DNA from: Podarcis cretensis
Lineage: Eukaryota
Length of the DNA: 64,000 bases
Direction of reading: 5' to 3'
Assembly: GCA_951804945.1 (NCBI GenBank)
Contig: OX638155.1
Coordinates: 39,990,001 to 40,054,000 of the forward strand
In this document: positions 21,900 to 57,533 of the stretch, piece after piece
Layout of the letters: each line of letters begins with the position of its first letter
Numbering within the stretch: the first letter of the stretch is position 1
Notes under the pieces: model-generated
The model's database searches: none
Told to the model about the DNA's origin: nothing
Seen by the model: only the letters and a program-made list of their open reading frames with translations
Translations under genes and position numbers: made by a program

Positions 21900-23505
21900 G
21901 ACTTCCGGGTTGGCGCCATCGCCGAATGGCGGACTCCCTCCGAGCTCCGGAGGAAGTCTGCTCGGCAGGGGCTGGGTTCTACCGCGCCGGCGACGCGGGG
22001 ACCCTCAAAAACCATGGGCGCTGAAACCCATGGGCATGGTGACTCGGCTGGCACCGTTTGTGCCCCCCCGACCACGCGAAGGAGCCTTTTTAAAGGCTGC
22101 GGAGCGGGTGACAGGGGGGTGGTGGTGCTGTGAGTCTCCGCTTCCCCTGCCGAGCGAAGCCGCATGCCATTTGGCGGAGAGCGCTGACTTCTTCCATTGA
22201 AAATCTGGACTTAAAAGAACAACCCGTGAGTAATTGGAACTTGGATTAAAAAGGGGAATAAATTTTTTCTTAAATTCGGAGCGAGCGGGGGAGGTATAAA
22301 AAGGAAGTCAACCTCCCCCCTGTTGTAGAGGAGCTAAAGCAAAGGACCTGACAACTAAGATCGAGCGCAACTTTTTCTTTTGATAAAGATATTAATTTCG
22401 CGATGGAAAATTATAAGCTGGGCTGGAGGAGAAGAGTGGAATGTGAATTAAAATACAACCCCCCCCCCGGAAGCCCCGGGAGCGATCCGTGAGAGCGCCT
22501 GGAGAGGAGAAATAGAGGTTTTGACAGCTGTCAAAGGAGCTGCCAAAACTGAAGAACAAAAAGAGAACTTTGTTATGAGGACTTTGCTGGTTACATTTGT
22601 TATAAATTGGATATAAACTGTTTAAAACAAGGAATAATAAGTTACTTTGACTGGTGGGTGAGATCGGGAATGAAACTGAGTTACTATAATCCCTCTAGAG
22701 GAGCTGTGGGTTATTACAAGTATCGCTGGCATGGAATTTGAATCGGACATTTTATCTCCTGGGAAACTGCAGAAATGGAACACTATTTTGTCTACAGAGG
22801 TCTACACACTAAAGGAGACAATAGATTTATCTATTGAAGAATGGAAGGGACTTGACGTAATGTTTTGTTCCTGAATAACAAAGCCTCTGTAGAGGAATTA
22901 CAAGCTTTTTGGAATTAGAACATTTGTGCAGGAGAGCAGGGGGAAAAAAAGAAGAAAAAAAAAGAGGAGAAGAGAGAACATCAAGAACAACAAGAAAAAC
23001 AAGAACTGGACAAAGTTGGAAGATAGACCCTTTCTAAGATTGGACATTTGAAATTAAATATGATTAAAAGACGGTAAAGATTACTAAAAAGACGGCAAAG
23101 CGGACTGGTGAAGGATTATGGCTTAGATTATGGTTCAGATGTGGGAGCTCCAGGAGACAGTGGATTTGATGGACATTGGGAACGCAACCGGGAAAGGGGG
23201 GAGGGAAATTTGGAATCCAAAGGGTGTTAAATTATATTTTATTCTTTTTTTAATTCTTTTATGTTAATCTGTATCTTATATTAAAGAGGGGAACTCGTGG
23301 AAGGGAACAGGTCGATCTTAGGGGATGGGAAAATATTTTTTTAATTGGGTTAATGATAATAATTTTAAAATTTGGGGTAAGAATTTGTTGAATCTATTTG
23401 AAAGAATTGGAATACAAGAGGGGGTGGGGAGGGGGAAGTCCTGGAAAGATGATATTGAAAATAAGGCCTTAAATTTGGATGTTTTTCTTTTTTTTTTTGT
23501 TATAG
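21900..23505 (+). mobile_element. short non-autonomous L1-type retroelement related to 38105-39913; 3' end lost in the gap
   Basis: Same GACTTCCGGGTT start and a colinear, similar leader (CCCTCA.AAACC, GAGCCTTTTTAAAGGCT, GAGAGCGCTGACTT, CAACCCGTGAGT, TTTGACAGCTGTCAAA). G-rich GGGGAAGTC 3' UTR. Confidence 0.82.
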
Positions 23506-25060: not shown

Positions 25061-26644
25061 CATGGGTAGATCTACACACAGGAAAAAATGCTATAAATAA
25101 GTCATAAATTAAATCGTTTAACCAAAGGAAAAAAACGCTATGTGAAATCACATGGAAAGGTTTTGTGTTCTACATCGCCATCTGGTGTTGCATGCTTGTA
25201 ATGCATTCAAAACACCATTTTTTTTTTTACTACAGTAATGTAGCTGAGTCCCATGCTCACACTCAGACAGAAGCATTAATCTGCACTTTTAGCATTAAGC
25301 TGCACAATTTCAGTAAAAAAGTAACCTCACATGGATGACCACAAAGAAAGGATGGTGATGTGCTATGTGCACATACTACACAATGTATAAAGGTTCTGAA
25401 TATGTGAATGAATGATTTTCATTGACATGAAACTGGGTGGAGATCTTGGCCAAGTTCTAGGAGTGTAACCACTGAAACACAATTCATTTTATTACATTTT
25501 ATATCCACCTTTTGTCCATGACAGAACTGAACATAGTGTGCCACATAAGGTTCCCAGTGGTTTCCCATCCAGACCATGGCCAAACTCAGAACTGTTCAGC
25601 AGCAGTGAAGTGCCTTTCAAACCTAAACCAGGTTGACTGCCAAATAAACCCTCCTGTTTCTGCAGACGGTTTTACCAATATGCATGGCCAATGGGCTATG
25701 TTCAACCTGACACATCACGGAATCATTATTTATGTATTTATAGTATTTATACTATATTGTCCACCAATTCAGTATTTCCATGGCACCTTACAGGTAGTCT
25801 ATCTTTAATAAGAGGGAACTTTTATAAAGTGAGACGTGCTTTAAGTTTAACCTTTCTTTAAAGCAAAAATGTAACCCAATTCTATGCCTTTGACTCTGTA
25901 GATTTCCCCCCTCCCTTTGCTGTAAACCACTGGAAGTAGACTATAGACTGTGACACATAATTTTAAAAAAGAGCAAGGTTTTATAGGAGTTACTAAATGT
26001 CCCACCAAATAATTAATGGCCATGTGCTACTTTAATGAAAAAAAGGACACCGTTATATGAGCACATAATTCTGATGTTGTACAGGAATTTCCTCAACATT
26101 TATGACAAATACCTTGAGGCAACATTGTATCAGCATGCTCCAGTAAGCCACGCTATTAAAATCAGTTATGAACCATTATCTAATAGGAAGCAGCACCTGT
26201 ACTATAAACCAACTTGACTGCATGCACAGCATAATGATACCAAGAGAATTGTGCATTTGGCTGGTGCATTTTCCTGTACCGTTTTACTAGGATAAGGCAT
26301 TTGTTAAGGCATTTCCTTCCATTATCTCTCTACTGGTGCTGGCAACCTTCAGCAATAAGGTTTGCATCAGTATGACCTGGCAGGGCCTAGGCAATTTGCA
26401 TGTAATAAATACAATGCATAATGGCTTTATGGTAGACATATTGGGGTTATTTAGCAACATTTTCATTCTAAACTTGTTACCGTCAAGCCCTTGGAAACCC
26501 TGAAATATGGATTAGAAACCTTCCAATTATTTACCTCCATGTATCCAATCATTTTACATCTTGGGTCCTTTGTGTGAGTGCGTTCTTTTTCTCTCTTTCT
26601 GAAAGCATGAAGGCTATGAATTCAGTCTCAGGTATTCTCTTTTC

Positions 26645-27768
26645 TTTTTTTCTTTTTTTAAATAATTTTTATTAACTGGCCAATCACATCAAATTAAATC
26701 ACATCATATAAATTCCGAATTACAAAGCCAAATTTTTAAATTTTGTTGGGGGAACCCATACTTCAAGATCCAAAGGGGAATTCAGATCATCTTCTTATTA
26801 CTGCGTTAATGTCCAAATCAGTCCCAATCAGTCCAAACAAAGTTCATAATTCTATCCAGTCTTATCTTGGTGTTACCACATCATATCTTGTTCGTATAAT
26901 TTCTCTTTTTCCTTTACGATCTCTTCTGTTAGTCTCCTTAAGCCGATAGCAAGTGTAATAATCCTGTGTGGATTTCCCGTTCCTCCACTAAGTCCAGATG
27001 GTTTCCATATATCTCCTTCGTAGATAACATCACTTTTTCCATCGTAAATTTTGGCATTTGTCGCTCTTAAGTCCCACCGAGGAGTTGATTCATGATATGT
27101 AAACAACTCTATTTCTCTCTTTCTCCTCCCAGACCCAAGAGCTCCCACAATGCCTCACAAAATGGCGAACGGCATTTTTTCCTGACTGCGTCACTCCAAA
27201 ACTCAGCTTTCCAGCTTCATCTTGAAACATTGCTTTGGATCGAAAGTTTATCTCCACACAGCTTTAAATCCACAGCTTAAGTCCTTAATTTCTGACTCAT
27301 TAGGGGAGGGGGATTCTTGTTAAGTCACATAAAAAGGTAGAGGCAGGTTTTTCCCCCCCTCCCCCCTCAGTCATTACCGTATCTTGACGTTCTTCTCGTA
27401 TTTTATTGTTGTCTTGTTATCAGAGATCTCTTCTGTCAGCAGTATTTACTCCCCTTTTTCCTTGATGTATGTGCAATTAATCATGTCCAAATTATTTCTT
27501 TTAAAGATCATTGCAACCAGCGGCGCGAATCGGGGACGGCGTCGAGGAGTGCCGAAAATCCCACAGGAGGGCTTTGTGCCTAGTGCCCCCACCCCCACAA
27601 ATTCGGGGGTGGTATAGGGCACAGCAGGCAAGGGCCGTCCCCCCCATAATCCTGGGGGGGGGGGTTAAGGAGGCTAATTACCCCCATCATAGCCTCCAAA
27701 TTACCTCGTGTGGGTCGGAGAGATGTTATTGTCAGCCATCTTCCGATGCGCCACCTAGTGGCCCCCCC
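26645..27768 (-). mobile_element. ~1.1 kb non-autonomous retroelement with L1-type insertion hallmarks, complete, distinct family
   Basis: 5' G-run plus CpG leader, AATAAA plus poly(A). 17-bp TSD TCAGGTATTCTCTTTTC at 26628-26644 and 27769-27785. TT|GAAAA endonuclease-type target. Confidence 0.85.
27748..27763 (-). promoter_or_regulatory. consensus CTCF core motif GGCCACTAGGTGGCGC
   Basis: Matches CCACYAGRKGGCRS; motif match only, no binding data. Confidence 0.6.
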
Positions 27769-37460: not shown

Positions 37461-38104
37461 CCATAGGCTGGTTCTTGTGCAGAAAGCAGTGGTGTTGAAA
37501 AAGCTGGTTTAGAACTGTGTTCGTATGAATGGAGCTCCCATGACTGACTCTCTCTTTTCCTTTCCTTTGTAAATAGTTTTCTTGTCAATCACTTGATTGT
37601 TGGCGTCCAAGTGGGAATTTGAAATCAAATGTAGGTTGGACCAGCTACAGGACCAAACTTGATAAGACACCAATCACACAATTACAAGTGCTGTTGTTGT
37701 TGTTGTTGTTGTTTTAATATAAATAGCAAGCACAAGGGTGCTGATCTGAACTGGGACCCTGACACAGGATAGGGACCTTTTACCTTTTATCTTTTCCCTG
37801 GTTCTCAGTCTGGATCAAGCCCCAATACCTGCTATGTGCATAAAGGGGAAAGCTCCCATTCATGGCGTTATTTAAAAAGCTAATTGCTTGAATGGTGTCT
37901 CATTTAGTTTGGCCTTGAGGCAGCTGCCCAAGTGAGCAATTATGCATGGAACTACTACAAACATTGAGAATAATTGCTGCTCCTCCAGACCAGTGAATGC
38001 AAAGTTAGTAAGAACTTAATAAATAAATAAATGCTTGGCTTGTAAATGCTACCCCCAAACTATTTCCTTTGGCTTCTTGATTTTAGCCTGGGATGGATTT
38101 TTCC

Positions 38105-39913
38105 TTTTTTTTTTTTAATAATTTTTATTAGATTTTTCACATTTTATAAAGACAATTTCATATCCTTACTTTCTTAACCCCACTCCCTGACTTCCCCCAC
38201 CCCCCCTTCATACATCCCAATTCCCGTAGTTAGCTCAGCAAGTACTTGTCTCTCATCTTTAACATATTGTTATTATTTTTAAACTTAGCTCTTTTTACTT
38301 GGTCAAATTTTACTTATCCAATTCTCTTATAGATATTAAATCCTTTTCTAAGGTCGACCCAAGTTCCCTTCCACGAATTTCCCCCTTTTTACATTAGATA
38401 TAGGTCATAATAACCATACACAAAAATCATGAAAATTTTAAAATTCTGTTCTTCCCTCCCTCCCTACCCCGGTTTCCGTCCCTTCCCAAATAAATGTCCT
38501 CAAAAACAGTTCTAGCCTGGATTCCTCACATCCGAGGCCTTCAAATCTTTGTCAGTCTCTCTCTGCCGATTTTGTTGGTAGCCCTTTTTGTTGATCCTCA
38601 GGTCTCGAAGGAGTTCTGTCACAGTCACATCAAATTTTCTTCCATCCAAAATACTTGAAAGCAACTGCTGCAAAAGGTCAACTGATCTCCCATACTCAAG
38701 GGGGAAGTCCCGATCATATTTCTTCTCTCTTTTAAATTCCAGTATTCCAAGTACTCCGGGGGCTTCCTCCTTCATCTTTCGCATCTTTCGCAGATTTGTA
38801 ATCCAAAGATCTTCTTTATGTTCTAACAATATAGGCTTCTGGTTGGTATTTTCCATCTGTACTTTCTCCACTCCTTCTTCCCTCTCCACCAGTTCCAAAG
38901 ATATCTCTTCTGGTTCAGCTGCCGATTTTTTTCCCAGTCAGGTCCTTTATGCATTCAGCAGAGTTGCTTGTTTTAGAAGTCAAGGTCATAAGTTCTTTGT
39001 TCATAGCCATGCTCTGCTCTTGCAATATTCCCACGAGAAAAAACATTATTTCTATCTCAGCCTGTAATTTTCCATCTGCAGCCATTGTAATGTCTCAAAG
39101 TTCCCCCTAGGGGGATTCTGGTTACTTGTTAATCCTTTTCCAACAATCCGTTACTTTGTTGTTTATTTACTACTTTGTTCCCAACCACTTTAATTCAAAT
39201 GTAACACGTTTAGTCCAGAGAGATATTAAGTAGTAAAATTTTTAACTTTAACTGCCCGTTTGACAGCTCCTTTGACAGCTGTCAAACTCCTTGTTCCTTT
39301 TCCTCAGGCTCACACACAGGACTCTCCCGGGTCCGGGGGGGGGGGTTTACACAAAAGCTTCTAAAATTCCCCTCTTACTCTCCAGCACAAAAACTTCTTC
39401 TGTCAAATTCATGGAATTATTATCTTTTATCTGACACTGAAAAAACAATGATCTCTCCACCTTAGTTCTCCGATCCTTGCTTTAAATCATTTGTAGGTAG
39501 GGGGGGTGCGGACTTCCCTTTAGCACATCCCCCGGTCGTACCGAATTCAATGGTAAAGATTTTAAAGTCCAAATTCCGTTCTACTCACGGGTTGTTTGTT
39601 TTCAAGTCCAAATTTTGGGGAAAAAGTCAGCGCTCTCCGGCCATGGCTCGCGGCTTCGCTCCACTGAAGTAGCGGTCTACTCACAGCACCGCGCCACTCT
39701 CCGTACCCTCTCCGTAGCCTTTAAAAAGGCTCTTCGTGGGTCGGGGAGGGCGCTTAAGGTGCCCGCCGAGTCACCAAGTCCGCAGGCTTCCGCGCCTGCG
39801 GTTTCTGAGGGTCTCCGCGTCGCCGTCGCGGCAAGACCCATCTCCAGCTGAGCCGATTCCCTCCAGAGCTTGGAGGGAATCCGCCATTAGCTGATCGCGC
39901 TAACCCGGAAGTC
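38105..39913 (-). mobile_element. short (~1.8 kb) non-autonomous L1-type retroelement (HAL1-like), complete
   Basis: 5' end GACTTCCGG with CpG-rich leader, frameshifted ORF ~39085-38512, G-rich 3' UTR, AATAAA and poly(A). 17-18 bp TSD (C)CTGGGATGGATTTTTCC at 38087-38104 and 39913-39930. Confidence 0.85.
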
Positions 39914-41449
39914 CTGGGATGGATTTTTCCAAATCTCACATCCTTTTTGTTCTGTGGTGTCTCCTGTTCAAGCTGGTTCCCCCTTTCTCTAGACTTAGTT
40001 CCTTCTCTGTCCCACTTCCCTTTCTCTTAGGTCTACAACAGGGGTACCCAATATGCTGCCCCTCAAATGTTGCTGGACCTCAACTTCCATCAGCTCCATG
40101 TAGCACAAGTATTGGCTAAGAATAATGGGAGTTATAGACATTAACACCTGGAGGGCACAACACTGGCTATCCACCTATCCCAGCTCTATATCTTTGGTGG
40201 TTTCTAGCCTGCCTAGAAAATGGAAACCTAAAGACTAACGAGTAAATTGCACAGTCTTTGTACTTTGGTGTGTTGAGGGCTGGATATTCTGTTGTTTTTC
40301 TGGTGTACCTTTAAAGCCAGCCTGACTTAAACCCCACAAACCATTCCAACAGCAACAACTGGATCCTCGAACACTTAGACTTGCATGCCATCCTTTGCAT
40401 TTGGTGAGAGGGATAAATGCCTCTATGTAAATGCAGAATTCCACCCCCACCCCCCAGTATTGTACTGACAGTCAGCCCAAAGCTCCTGTGATAGCATCTG
40501 GCACTGTTGAGCACTGACACCGCTCATTTTACAAATTAAGCACTGGCAACACATCCAAAGAAGATAAATGATCTTCTGTTCATGCTACATTATCTTGTCG
40601 TTTTATTTTATTTTTTCCCATAAGATGTGGTCCTGGTCTGGGCTACCAAAAAGAAGCAATTCAAAACAAACTCTAAACACACGAGAGGAATTTATTTGAT
40701 CAGTGTCCTGATCCACTCTAACTCTATTGCTTCTTAATAGTGTTACGATCATCCAGATATAGCAGTCTTATAGGCTGCTATAGATATGCTTTCATGAATA
40801 TTCTGGTGATTTACAATGCAAGCTATTGTCTGAAATCATGAATATCACATATAACCATAGCAGATCATGCACAAAAAGCCAATGTGGATGCATCCTATAA
40901 AATTCTGTTTGGCTGACCCACTGCAAAAACCCCTGACTTTTGGCAGACTGCTAAAGCAATTATCTTCAAATATTCATTGAAAAATAAGTGCTTTTTTATA
41001 GCTATAATAATATTCCTTTGATGCTTATTTGTACTATTATTGTGTGAAGTATAAATATAATTAATAACATGTTTAATGCAGAAATCATGACCGGGTAATT
41101 GATATTTTATGCAGAAAAGAATGCTGATAATAAATTCAATTAAAGCTCCCTTCTGCTATGAGTTGTGTCAGGTGGCATCATGTGTAGAAAAGGGTCCCAC
41201 CACTGGCTCCACCTCCAAAATTATGCAGCTTTTAGGCTCCACTGCAATGTTCACACATTAGGTGTAGAACTCTGTAGAATGTGCAGGTTTCTAGCTTGGA
41301 TGCAGGTCTCTGTATAGGCACTTTCTCCATAAGAGAGCCCCATCTAAAATGTGGAAGTCAGGGATGAGAATGAAATGCGGGAGAAGTATTTGCTACAGCT
41401 CAAACTACCCCTTGCCGAAATGCTTGAATTAAGTAACTAAGCATCATAC

Positions 41450-56151: not shown

Positions 56152-57533
56152 CCGTATTTTTCGCCCTATAGGATGCACTTCTTCCCCTCCAAAAATGAAG
56201 GGGAAATGTGGGTGCGTCCTATGGGGCGAATACAGGCTTTCGCGGAAGCCCGGGGAGCGAGAGGCTCTCGCTCTCCAGGCTTCAGGAAGCTCTGTACAAC
56301 CCTCCGGAGCCCAGTGCCAAGCCGCGCCGACCTCCAGAGGGTCGTGGAGAGCTGCCTGCGCTCCCGGGGTCCGCGCAGCTTTGCGCGACCCTCTGGAGCC
56401 CGGCGCCAAGCTGCGCTGGCCTCCGGAGGGTTGCGCAGAGCTGCCTGCCCTCCCGGGGTCCGCGCAGCTCTGCGCGACCCTCCGGAGCCCGGCGCCAAGC
56501 CGCGCTGGCCTCCGGAGGGTTGCGCAGAGCTGCCTGCCCTCCCGGGGTCCGCGCAGCTGTGCGCATCGCTCCAGAGCCCAGCGCCAAGCACTCCCGGGCT
56601 CCACGCAGCTCTGCGCAACCCTCCGGAGCCCGGCGCCAAGCTGCGCTGGCCTCCGGAGGGTTGCGCAGAGCTGCCTGCCCTCCCGGGGTCCGCGCAGCTC
56701 TGCGCGACCCTCCGGAGCCCGGCGCCAAGCCGCGCTGGCCTCCGGAGGGTTGCGCAGAGCTGCCTGCCCTCCCGGGGTCCGCGCAGCTGTGCGCATCGCT
56801 CCAGAGCCCAGCGCCAAGCCGCGCCGGCCTCCGGAGGGTCGCGGAGAGCTGCCTGCCCTCCCGGGGTCCGCGCAGCTTAGCGCAACCCTCCGGAGCCCGG
56901 CGCCAAGCCGCGCTGGCCTCCGGAGGGTTGCGCAGAGATGCCTGCCCTCCCGGGGTCCGCGCAGCTTTGCGCAACCCTCCGGAGCCCGCGCCAAGCCACG
57001 CTGGCCTCCGGAGGGTCGCGCAGAGCTGCCTGCCCTCCCGGGGTCCGTGCAGCTTTGCGCGACCGTCCGGAGCCTGGCGCCAAGCCGCGCCGGCCTCTGG
57101 AGGGTCGCGGAGAGCTGCCTACCCTCCCGGGGTCTGCGCAGCTTTGCGCGACCCTCCGGAGCCCGGCGCCAAGCCGGCCTCTGGAGGGTCGCGGAGAGCT
57201 GCCTGCCCTCCCGGGGTCCGCGCAGCTTTGCGTGACCCTCCGGAGCCCGGCGCCAAGCCGTGCTGGCCTCCGCAGGGTTGCGCAGAGCTGCCTGCACTGG
57301 GAAGCCTCAGCGCGCCCGGGCTTCGCACAGCTGTCCGCAATCCTGGGGAGACCGGCGCGGCTCCCTAGGCTTGCGGATAGCAGGCTCTTCTGGGGGCTGG
57401 GGTCGGGGAAACTCGGGCTTCCCCTGCGCCAGCCCCGTGCCTGGGGGGGAAATAAATTTTTTTCTTTATTTCCTCCCCCAAAAAACTAGGTGCGTCCTAT
57501 AGGGCGGTGCGTCCTATGGGGCGAAAAATACGG
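56152..57533. mobile_element. Tc1/mariner-superfamily (Tc2/pogo-like) non-autonomous DNA transposon with internal GC-rich satellite
   Basis: TIRs CCGTATTTTTCGCCCTATAGGA ... TCCTATGGGGCGAAAAATACGG, with TA duplication on both sides. Confidence 0.9.
56286..57295. repeat. 89-bp CpG-rich tandem array (~12 units, one truncated); each unit is a 70-nt inverted repeat plus a 19-nt linker
   Basis: Unit starts at approximately 56286, 56375, 56464, 56553 (short), 56605, 56694, 56783, 56872, 56961, 57049, 57138 and 57222. Confidence 0.93.

Follow-up and report, generated by a model that had tools for sequence, protein, structure and literature searches.

A half-L1 copy and a relative in one window

The window is the whole stretch of DNA analyzed here, 64,000 nucleotides of Podarcis cretensis contig OX638155.1 (positions 39,990,001 to 40,054,000). 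Its minus strand carries a full-length copy of a non-autonomous L1-type element with a single short ORF, referred to below as a half-L1, and its plus strand carries the 5′ part of a relative. The features are as follows, numbered from the first letter of the window.

38105–39913, minus strand: full-length half-L1 copy of 1,809 nt, with a retrotransposition-dead ORF
39914–39930: target-site duplication (TSD), 5′ side, 17 nt, or 18 nt counting the shared base 39913
39472–39913, minus strand: CpG-rich leader with homology to ~450 nt at the start of the 5′UTR of the L1 group named clade X below
39855–39881, minus strand: 11-bp hairpin close to the 5′ end, from fold prediction, found likewise in two sister families
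39103–39114, minus strand: short palindromic box, ~18 nt 5′ of the ATG
38512–39085, minus strand: ORF probably derived from ORF1p, from ATG at 39085 to TAG at 38512; 191 aa in the intact copy L003
38939–39067, minus strand: predicted coiled coil, codons 7–49, six heptads
38930–38937, minus strand: G/A run with a +1 frameshift private to the window copy, at ~38934–38937
38515–38550, minus strand: C-terminal motif (R/K)DL(K/R)ASDVR(N/S/D)PG, nearly invariant and absent from ORF1p
38117–38511, minus strand: 3′UTR, the last ~200–260 nt like that of clade X
38105–38129, minus strand: AATAAA (38124–38129) and A-rich tail to 38105
38088–38104: TSD, 3′ side, 17 nt
21900–22874, plus strand: 5′ part of a family 2 copy, with the same leader and a decayed long ORF; the family is ~1.64 kb elsewhere
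22731–22874, plus strand: 47-aa frame of the family 2 copy, keeping ~33 coiled-coil residues

A sequence-only reading of this DNA had described a 17–18 bp TSD, a poly(A) tail, a promoter-like leader and the absence of ORF2, and all four descriptions hold. The repeats, the AATAAA and the tail can be read directly from the listed positions. The first 300 nt of the copy have a GC content of 0.62–0.63 and 9–11 CpG per 100 nt, against a GC content of 0.31–0.49 downstream; the leader is likely to be an internal Pol II promoter. No match to ORF2p was found at E ≤ 1 in the window copy and 22 relatives when an intact ORF2p was used as the tblastn query. Over the first 80 nt the fold z-score is −3.42 in the window family, −1.67 and −2.27 in the sisters and −0.96 in clade X. 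A splice-donor-like motif at nt ~323 (window 39583–39591, minus strand) is kept in the window family, its sisters and clade X L1, and no spliced copies using it were seen among the copies examined.

Two breaks in the ORF had been proposed, at ~39050 and ~38930. The latter is the listed frameshift, whereas the frame is open from the ATG to 38918, so the former is not found. Two other copies are 97–98% identical to the window copy, which differs from its two closest relatives by the +1 frameshift and by two deletions, one of 3 nt that keeps the frame (~38818) and one of 37 nt in the 3′UTR (~38156).

A large radiation of non-autonomous elements

The window copy is one member of a large radiation of non-autonomous L1 elements of 1.8–2.25 kb. 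A DNA search of the same genome gave 5,458 candidates, and 31 of the 40 best scored, in a ranking that favors full-length matches, span nt 1–1760 at 88–100% identity. Exact TSDs bound 26 of the 30 loci taken, and 25 of these give lengths of 1,808–1,881 nt, in agreement with the earlier proposal of an amplified ~1.8-kb unit. The ORF is intact from start to stop (190–194 aa) in 20 of the 30 DNA-picked copies. In a protein search the best 150 of 3,116 candidates are all at least 80% alike, and 135 of those 150 are stop-free. Exact occurrences of the C-terminal motif number at least 1,200 in the genome, a lower bound on copies that takes all ORF-bearing families together, and a reversed control has none.

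Further families were retrieved from the same genome using a distant homologue as query. They are 60–75% like the window family at the DNA level; 28 of their 32 loci have TSDs and measure 1,859–2,253 nt, and their ORFs of 201–217 aa lie in the same place, ~780–840 nt from the 5′ end. Terminal branches are mostly ~0.5–1.5%, and several subfamilies must therefore have been active recently. The copy 16 kb away that had been taken as evidence of the same family is indeed related, but it belongs to a sister family (72% over 655 nt). Of 41 target sites, 35 show a pyrimidine ahead of the cut, and A occupies +2 in 32 of them and +4 likewise in 32; a pyrimidine at the cut followed by A-rich sequence is the lean of the L1 endonuclease.

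Homologues from public collections number 9 and 11 proteins, all short (129–215 aa). No longer homologue was found among 1.84 billion representatives, and none of 378–2,000 aa among 7,991 candidates, the latter being weak evidence. Contigs from four runs, which are only presumed to be RNA and are not evidence of transcription, cover 24–29 of 30 bins at 80% likeness, and splice-type ends are lacking at all 15 joints inspected, out of 51. At G000:C13:41550831-41573219, six matches to one divergent half-L1 ORF lie on one strand at ~4.5-kb spacing, forming a tandem array.

Clade X, the closest L1 sampled

Searches with reverse transcriptase gave L1s of 6.2–7 kb, and the 60 loci compared share with the family only the first bases and one weak motif. 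Clade X was first met as an L1 nested in one of these 60 loci, with a 5′UTR that matched the family, and was then sampled at 20 loci. Clade X L1s are ~6.1 kb long with an ORF1 of 335 aa, and one locus (L170) has an unbroken ORF2 of 1,245 aa. The clade X ORF1p profile matches the RRM-CTD of human ORF1p (2LDY, E 0.0017).

Over the first ~450 nt, the clade X leader is 66–69% identical to that of the family by blastn. A DNA profile of 22 non-autonomous elements matched clade X nt 1–450 with E-values of 1e-55 to 1e-71 at 6 of 6 loci (nhmmer), and scored 1e-5 or weaker at the 5′ ends of nine other L1 loci. The last 200–260 nt, which have a high AT bias, matched with E-values of 1e-10 to 1e-14 at 5 of 5 full-length clade X loci, and at 1e-3 or weaker in the nine others. 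The ORF region gave no significant DNA similarity to clade X with the nhmmer profile. The autonomous L1 sharing both ends, which the sequence-only reading had proposed to look for, is thus represented by clade X. Even in the leader, clade X is ~32% diverged from the family, and divergence inside subfamilies is 1–2%. Clade X is the closest relative among the 80 L1 loci sampled and a candidate helper.

L1 diversity is very high in this genome, with 5,299 ORF1 candidates and several clades with long open ORF2 frames, and most of the full-length L1 copies sampled (L081–L100, L121–L160) begin with the same 9-base motif. A segmental repeat carries the same arrangement at one locus (L125) and two more places on C3 (121.01–121.11 Mb), three in all: inside another L1 lies a clade X L1 that has lost ~340 nt, and with them the start of ORF1. 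Named relatives of L1 ORF1p in public proteins are from Podarcis. Two Podarcis proteins annotated as TRIM39-like or uncharacterized (P0034 and P0036), with RING and B-box Pfam domains, match clade X ORF1p at 46–47% over 82–84% of the length of that ORF1p, and are possibly a TRIM-ORF1p fusion or a gene-model artifact.

Probable derivation of the ORF from ORF1p

The comparison of the ORF with L1 ORF1p that had been suggested as a check gave a match to clade X only. By hhalign, the ORF family aligns with clade X ORF1p at a probability of 89.3% (E 2.1e-6) over 188 columns and ORF1p residues 48–309, colinear throughout, beginning at the internal Met 49 and reaching the CTD's end. [quoted passage not shown] The probability against clade X grew with alignment depth, from 0.8% through 58.6% and 79% to 89.3%. 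The score of 49.6 compares with a maximum of 23.7 in 100 column shuffles and with 18.6 (0.6%) for 39 ORF1p sequences of other L1 clades; across the hhalign comparisons, ORF1p of other clades gave 0.1–1.7%. The region past the coiled coil alone matched ORF1p weakly (2.5%, E 0.018); its score was reached by 0 of 50 and 1 of 50 shuffles, and with another alignment by 0 of 60 and 4 of 60.

These alignments argue strongly that the ORF is an ORF1p starting at an internal Met, with most of the RRM and CTD lost, and on account of that loss its protein would be expected to lack the fold of an RNA chaperone. The sequence-only reading had suggested a truncated ORF1p coiled coil; the ORF1p derivation stands, but the ORF corresponds to more than the coiled coil, being a colinear, internally deleted version of nearly the whole protein. 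A weak echo of LEDRSRRNNLR in the segment KEDLWITNLR had also been pointed out. A shorter alignment did place that segment on the NNLR motif, whereas the longer-family alignment places EDLWITNL on an RRM helix (EFSKFWPL) and the NNLR motif on a segment lost in the window subfamily; the echo is probably, though not certainly, a coincidence. Pfam gave nothing above cut-off for the two window ORF fragments and 14 members, and genome searches with PF02994 and PF17490 gave nothing; the Pfam result is uninformative, since six true lizard ORF1p proteins also miss the Pfam L1 models.

How might the start of the ORF have arisen? The family ATG corresponds to a MAAG-type Met in ORF1p, with the same first 10 bases, and clade X has the same palindromic box ~281 nt 5′ of its internal ORF1 Met (18 of 20 L1 loci). 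Since the box lies only ~18 nt upstream in the family, a deletion of ~260 nt is likely to have created the start. Most clade X copies have a GT donor-like site after the box. The AG before the internal Met lacks a pyrimidine tract; a simple deletion would agree with the 5-nt repeat found on either side. Both splicing and microhomology deletion fit the founding junction.

Purifying selection and predicted structure

The dN/dS check that had been proposed was made on 25 intact ORFs, with stop-bearing copies and near-duplicates excluded. It gave an omega of 0.55 overall (2dL 82.6 against omega = 1), 0.46 for residues 1–49 (2dL 33.8), 0.65 for the middle (2dL 25.6) and 0.29 for residues 161–191 (2dL 43.3), so that neutrality is rejected for each of the three parts separately. 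The ORF is under purifying selection, which at 0.55, for ORFs picked as intact, is mild. Neutral change after insertion raises omega, and choosing intact frames biases indels and does not itself lower omega. Third codon positions vary under fixed residues at both ends of the ORF, and the constraint must therefore act on the protein. In-frame indels are many in the ORF alignment. Almost no variation is seen in the last ~12 residues, for which ORF1p has nothing equivalent, and the a and d positions of the heptads in residues 7–49 are 81% hydrophobic across 28 rows.

Two AlphaFold models (mean pLDDT 49.8 and 54.6) were confident only in the first helix (pLDDT 68–93); neither contains strands, and Foldseek found no fold match in the PDB at E ≤ 0.001. 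The intact set of coiled coil, RRM and CTD that characterizes ORF1p is not present, owing to the large RRM and CTD deletions.

Daughter families 2 and 2b

Family 2 gave 3,266 candidates, the best 40 of which are 95–100% identical. On a 5′ tree rooted on clade X, it falls among the ORF-bearing families, with supports of 91/98 and 86/98 that are below the starred level. Its ORF is colinear but decayed: the start is lost, and a frameshift and a stop are each common to 18 of 19 copies. Its sister family 2b is ~1.74 kb long and 98.4% alike among six copies, and all 150 scored matches are identical over its 48-aa frame. Both families have an ATG-led frame of 47–48 aa over the same 33 coiled-coil residues. 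Over these 33 codons there are 4 synonymous and 10 non-synonymous changes, about neutral, and no selection on the short frames was detected in this comparison, which has low power. From their sequences, the two families would be either non-coding or reduced to a micro-peptide.

Both were amplified without three quarters of the ORF, being multi-copy elements with TSDs and LINE 5′ and 3′ parts. Both are young and have spread with no more of the protein than the coiled coil, so the full protein probably helps without being essential.

Duplication of a single DNA motif as the source of both the N- and the C-terminal motif was considered and rejected, because the C-terminal match in family 2 proved to be a frameshifted reading of the N-terminal segment. 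Nested insertions were also seen: a 5′-shortened copy of the window family lies in a family-2-like element (L048:1041-4046), and a family 2b copy lies in a clade X L1 (L164:5342-6993).

A possible mechanism and its rivals

The window copy can be viewed as a frameshifted member of a half-L1 family that is large and old, was active recently and lacks ORF2; the family is likely to have arisen by internal deletion of a clade X-type L1 and likely to be copied in trans by L1 ORF2p. We give this reading a probability of about 0.7. It draws directly on the marks of target-primed insertion, the absence of a reverse transcriptase, uniform length, TSDs, poly(A), L1-type target bias, clade X ends and a selected ORF.

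How the protein would serve the element is more tentative. Half-L1 RNA would be transcribed from the retained internal promoter, and the protein made in cis would join helper ORF1p oligomers through its N-terminal coiled coil, while its basic, conserved C-terminal helix would hold its own RNA or another particle component. The half-L1 RNA would thereby enter L1 particles, where ORF2p would reverse-transcribe it from the poly(A) tail. As a whole this adaptor mechanism, with a cis-made protein bringing half-L1 RNA into L1 particles, falls slightly short of an even chance. When residues 1–75 of the protein were modeled in a complex with two ORF1p coiled coils, the score was 0.63, and the best of three controls, which were not chosen as coiled coils, scored 0.00; among microbial pairs the mark is attained by 51 of 78 that are solved and by 2 of 108 that are mismatched, and among eukaryotic ones by 39 of 65 and 2 of 126. 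The partner has a pLDDT of at least 60. The model was built without alignments, agreement in contacts between its runs is only 2%, and its top run has an antiparallel arrangement that departs from the homologous register. It may have passed through resemblance to solved three-helix bundles, and it shows that the helix could fill such a bundle, and little more. The doubt that has been raised about a trimeric lizard ORF1p (PMC5381506) also weighs against it.

Keeping the same element and origin, the protein could instead be a decoy or dominant-negative that interferes with helper ORF1p oligomers or sequesters a host restriction factor, leaving ORF2p free for the half-L1 RNA. This is improbable. 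It would suit the retention of the coiled coil while the RRM and CTD are gutted, the out-of-register placing of the protein on ORF1p in the complex model, and the youth and abundance of the protein-poor daughter families, as expected of a trans-acting product; against this, a cis benefit would more easily account for purifying selection sustained over element lineages in the long term, and the strongest constraint is on the C-terminal motif, outside the coiled coil. Translation itself might be what matters, through RNA stability, avoidance of decay or nearness to ribosomes making ORF2p, with the amino acids largely incidental. The omega of the middle region, the lack of a confident fold past the first helix, the many in-frame indels and the short frames with which the daughters live would all agree with this, but at both ends residues are fixed while third positions vary, with omegas of 0.46 and 0.29, and the heptad pattern is kept across 28 rows, which makes this explanation more improbable still.

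The two other rivals concern origin. If the ORF were captured or new, the profile match to ORF1p would come from coiled-coil composition, and the 14 members without a Pfam match, the weak match past the coiled coil and the want of a longer homologue among the 1.84 billion representatives would be as expected. The match is specific, however, to a single L1 clade, which has the 5′ and 3′ ends in common with the family as well, the match is colinear over 188 columns from the same MAAG-type Met and first 10 bases, ORF1p proteins of other clades have coiled coils and give no such match, and Pfam misses true lizard ORF1p too; of the rivals so far this is the least probable. That the copies are independent deletion products of full-length L1s, with no self-propagating family, is refuted. 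A few copies do have private internal deletions (L036, L038 and L049), none of them with GT-AG ends, but lengths are uniform, structure is common to the copies, subfamilies have diagnostic branches, and a distance of ~32% from the nearest L1 contrasts with 1–2% inside subfamilies. The heterogeneous products of one L1 that the sequence-only reading had allowed for are thus not what is seen.

Going beyond the main reading, one lizard genome might hold a full erosion series, recently active together: an L1, a half-L1 with an adaptor that docks on ORF1p and steals ORF2p, and daughters with a ~48-residue peptide or no protein at all. We regard this whole as possible and rather doubtful. If true, this would amount to a novel mode of hijacking L1 and to an L1 route to Pol II SINE-like elements that is absent from the 2018 survey cited below.

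Comparison with known elements

HAL1 (half-L1) elements were reportedly described in mammals by Smit in 1999 and by Bao and Jurka in 2010. Mammalian HAL1 is described as an L1 minus ORF2, with an ORF1p presumed to work as usual. Was the claim of a lizard analogue correct? The clade X ends, the lack of ORF2, the ORF with its probable ORF1p derivation and the TSD-bounded amplification bear it out as an analogy, and the lizard family is supported as a half-L1 by its ends, origin and behavior, while lacking an intact ORF1p. Like HAL1, it has L1 5′ and 3′ ends, a single ORF1-derived ORF, no ORF2 and many copies. Unlike HAL1, it comes from an L1 type with a long 5′UTR, and its ORF of 190–217 aa has parts of ORF1p deleted and a new C-terminal motif.

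HAL1 is an L1 derivative encoding ORF1p only, with several origins in mammals (PMC5753468). Rat HAL1 is 98% identical to active L1 over the 5′ 2,600 nt (PMC2241872), whereas the L1 nearest to the lizard family is ~68% alike over 450 nt only. Lizard L1 clades have been described, and the trimer state of lizard ORF1p has been doubted, in a paper in which neither HAL1 nor non-autonomous occurs (PMC5381506). The autonomous L1s sampled here, with long 5′UTRs and almost no spacer between the ORFs, are like clade 1 of Anolis as that clade is described (PMC5381506). A search for papers on squamate half-L1s by title and start of abstract found none; subscription papers, Repbase and Dfam lay outside it.

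The half-L1 is also reminiscent of HeT-A and Ag-Sponge, insect elements of the Jockey and CR1 clades likened here by their description, which encode one protein; such ORF1-only LINE proteins have been proposed to multimerize with the ORF1p of an autonomous partner (PMC5786205). The daughter families resemble RIME, NARTc and derivatives of Vingi and RTE in having LINE 5′ and 3′ parts and no long ORF. The accessible text of that 2018 paper gives RTE, Ingi, Vingi and R2 alone as sources of ORF-absent bipartite LINEs (PMC5786205), from which the lizard daughters would differ in an L1 source reached through a half-L1 stage and in perhaps encoding 47–48 aa. SpIREs, splice products of the human L1 5′UTR and ORF1, have a similar 5′UTR-to-ORF1 junction giving an N-terminally truncated ORF1p; they are dead ends with a non-functional ORF1p (PMC5860796), unlike the lizard lineage, which radiated into many subfamilies with young copies.

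Loss of the RNA-binding domains of ORF1p, with selection kept at both ends, would isolate what the parasite needs from ORF1p, probably oligomerization and one unexplained motif, and the natural deletion series makes the proposal of multimerization with a helper ORF1p directly testable. The daughters show that loss of most of the ORF need not stop a half-L1 from spreading, contrary to the view that a need for ORF1p is a barrier to non-coding parasites. Thousands of copies without a Pfam match are liable to be missed or mislabeled in lizard repeat and gene annotation.

Other features of the window

A third, unrelated-looking non-autonomous element of 1.13 kb lies at 26635–27765 on the minus strand, with a 17-nt TSD, a poly(A) tail and a different 5′ end. 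It has no consistent ATG frame above 80 aa and no matching L1 among those sampled; the best 40 of its 2,285 candidates are 98–100% identical. At 56288–57295 there is a GC-rich tandem array of an 89-bp unit with internal inverted symmetry.
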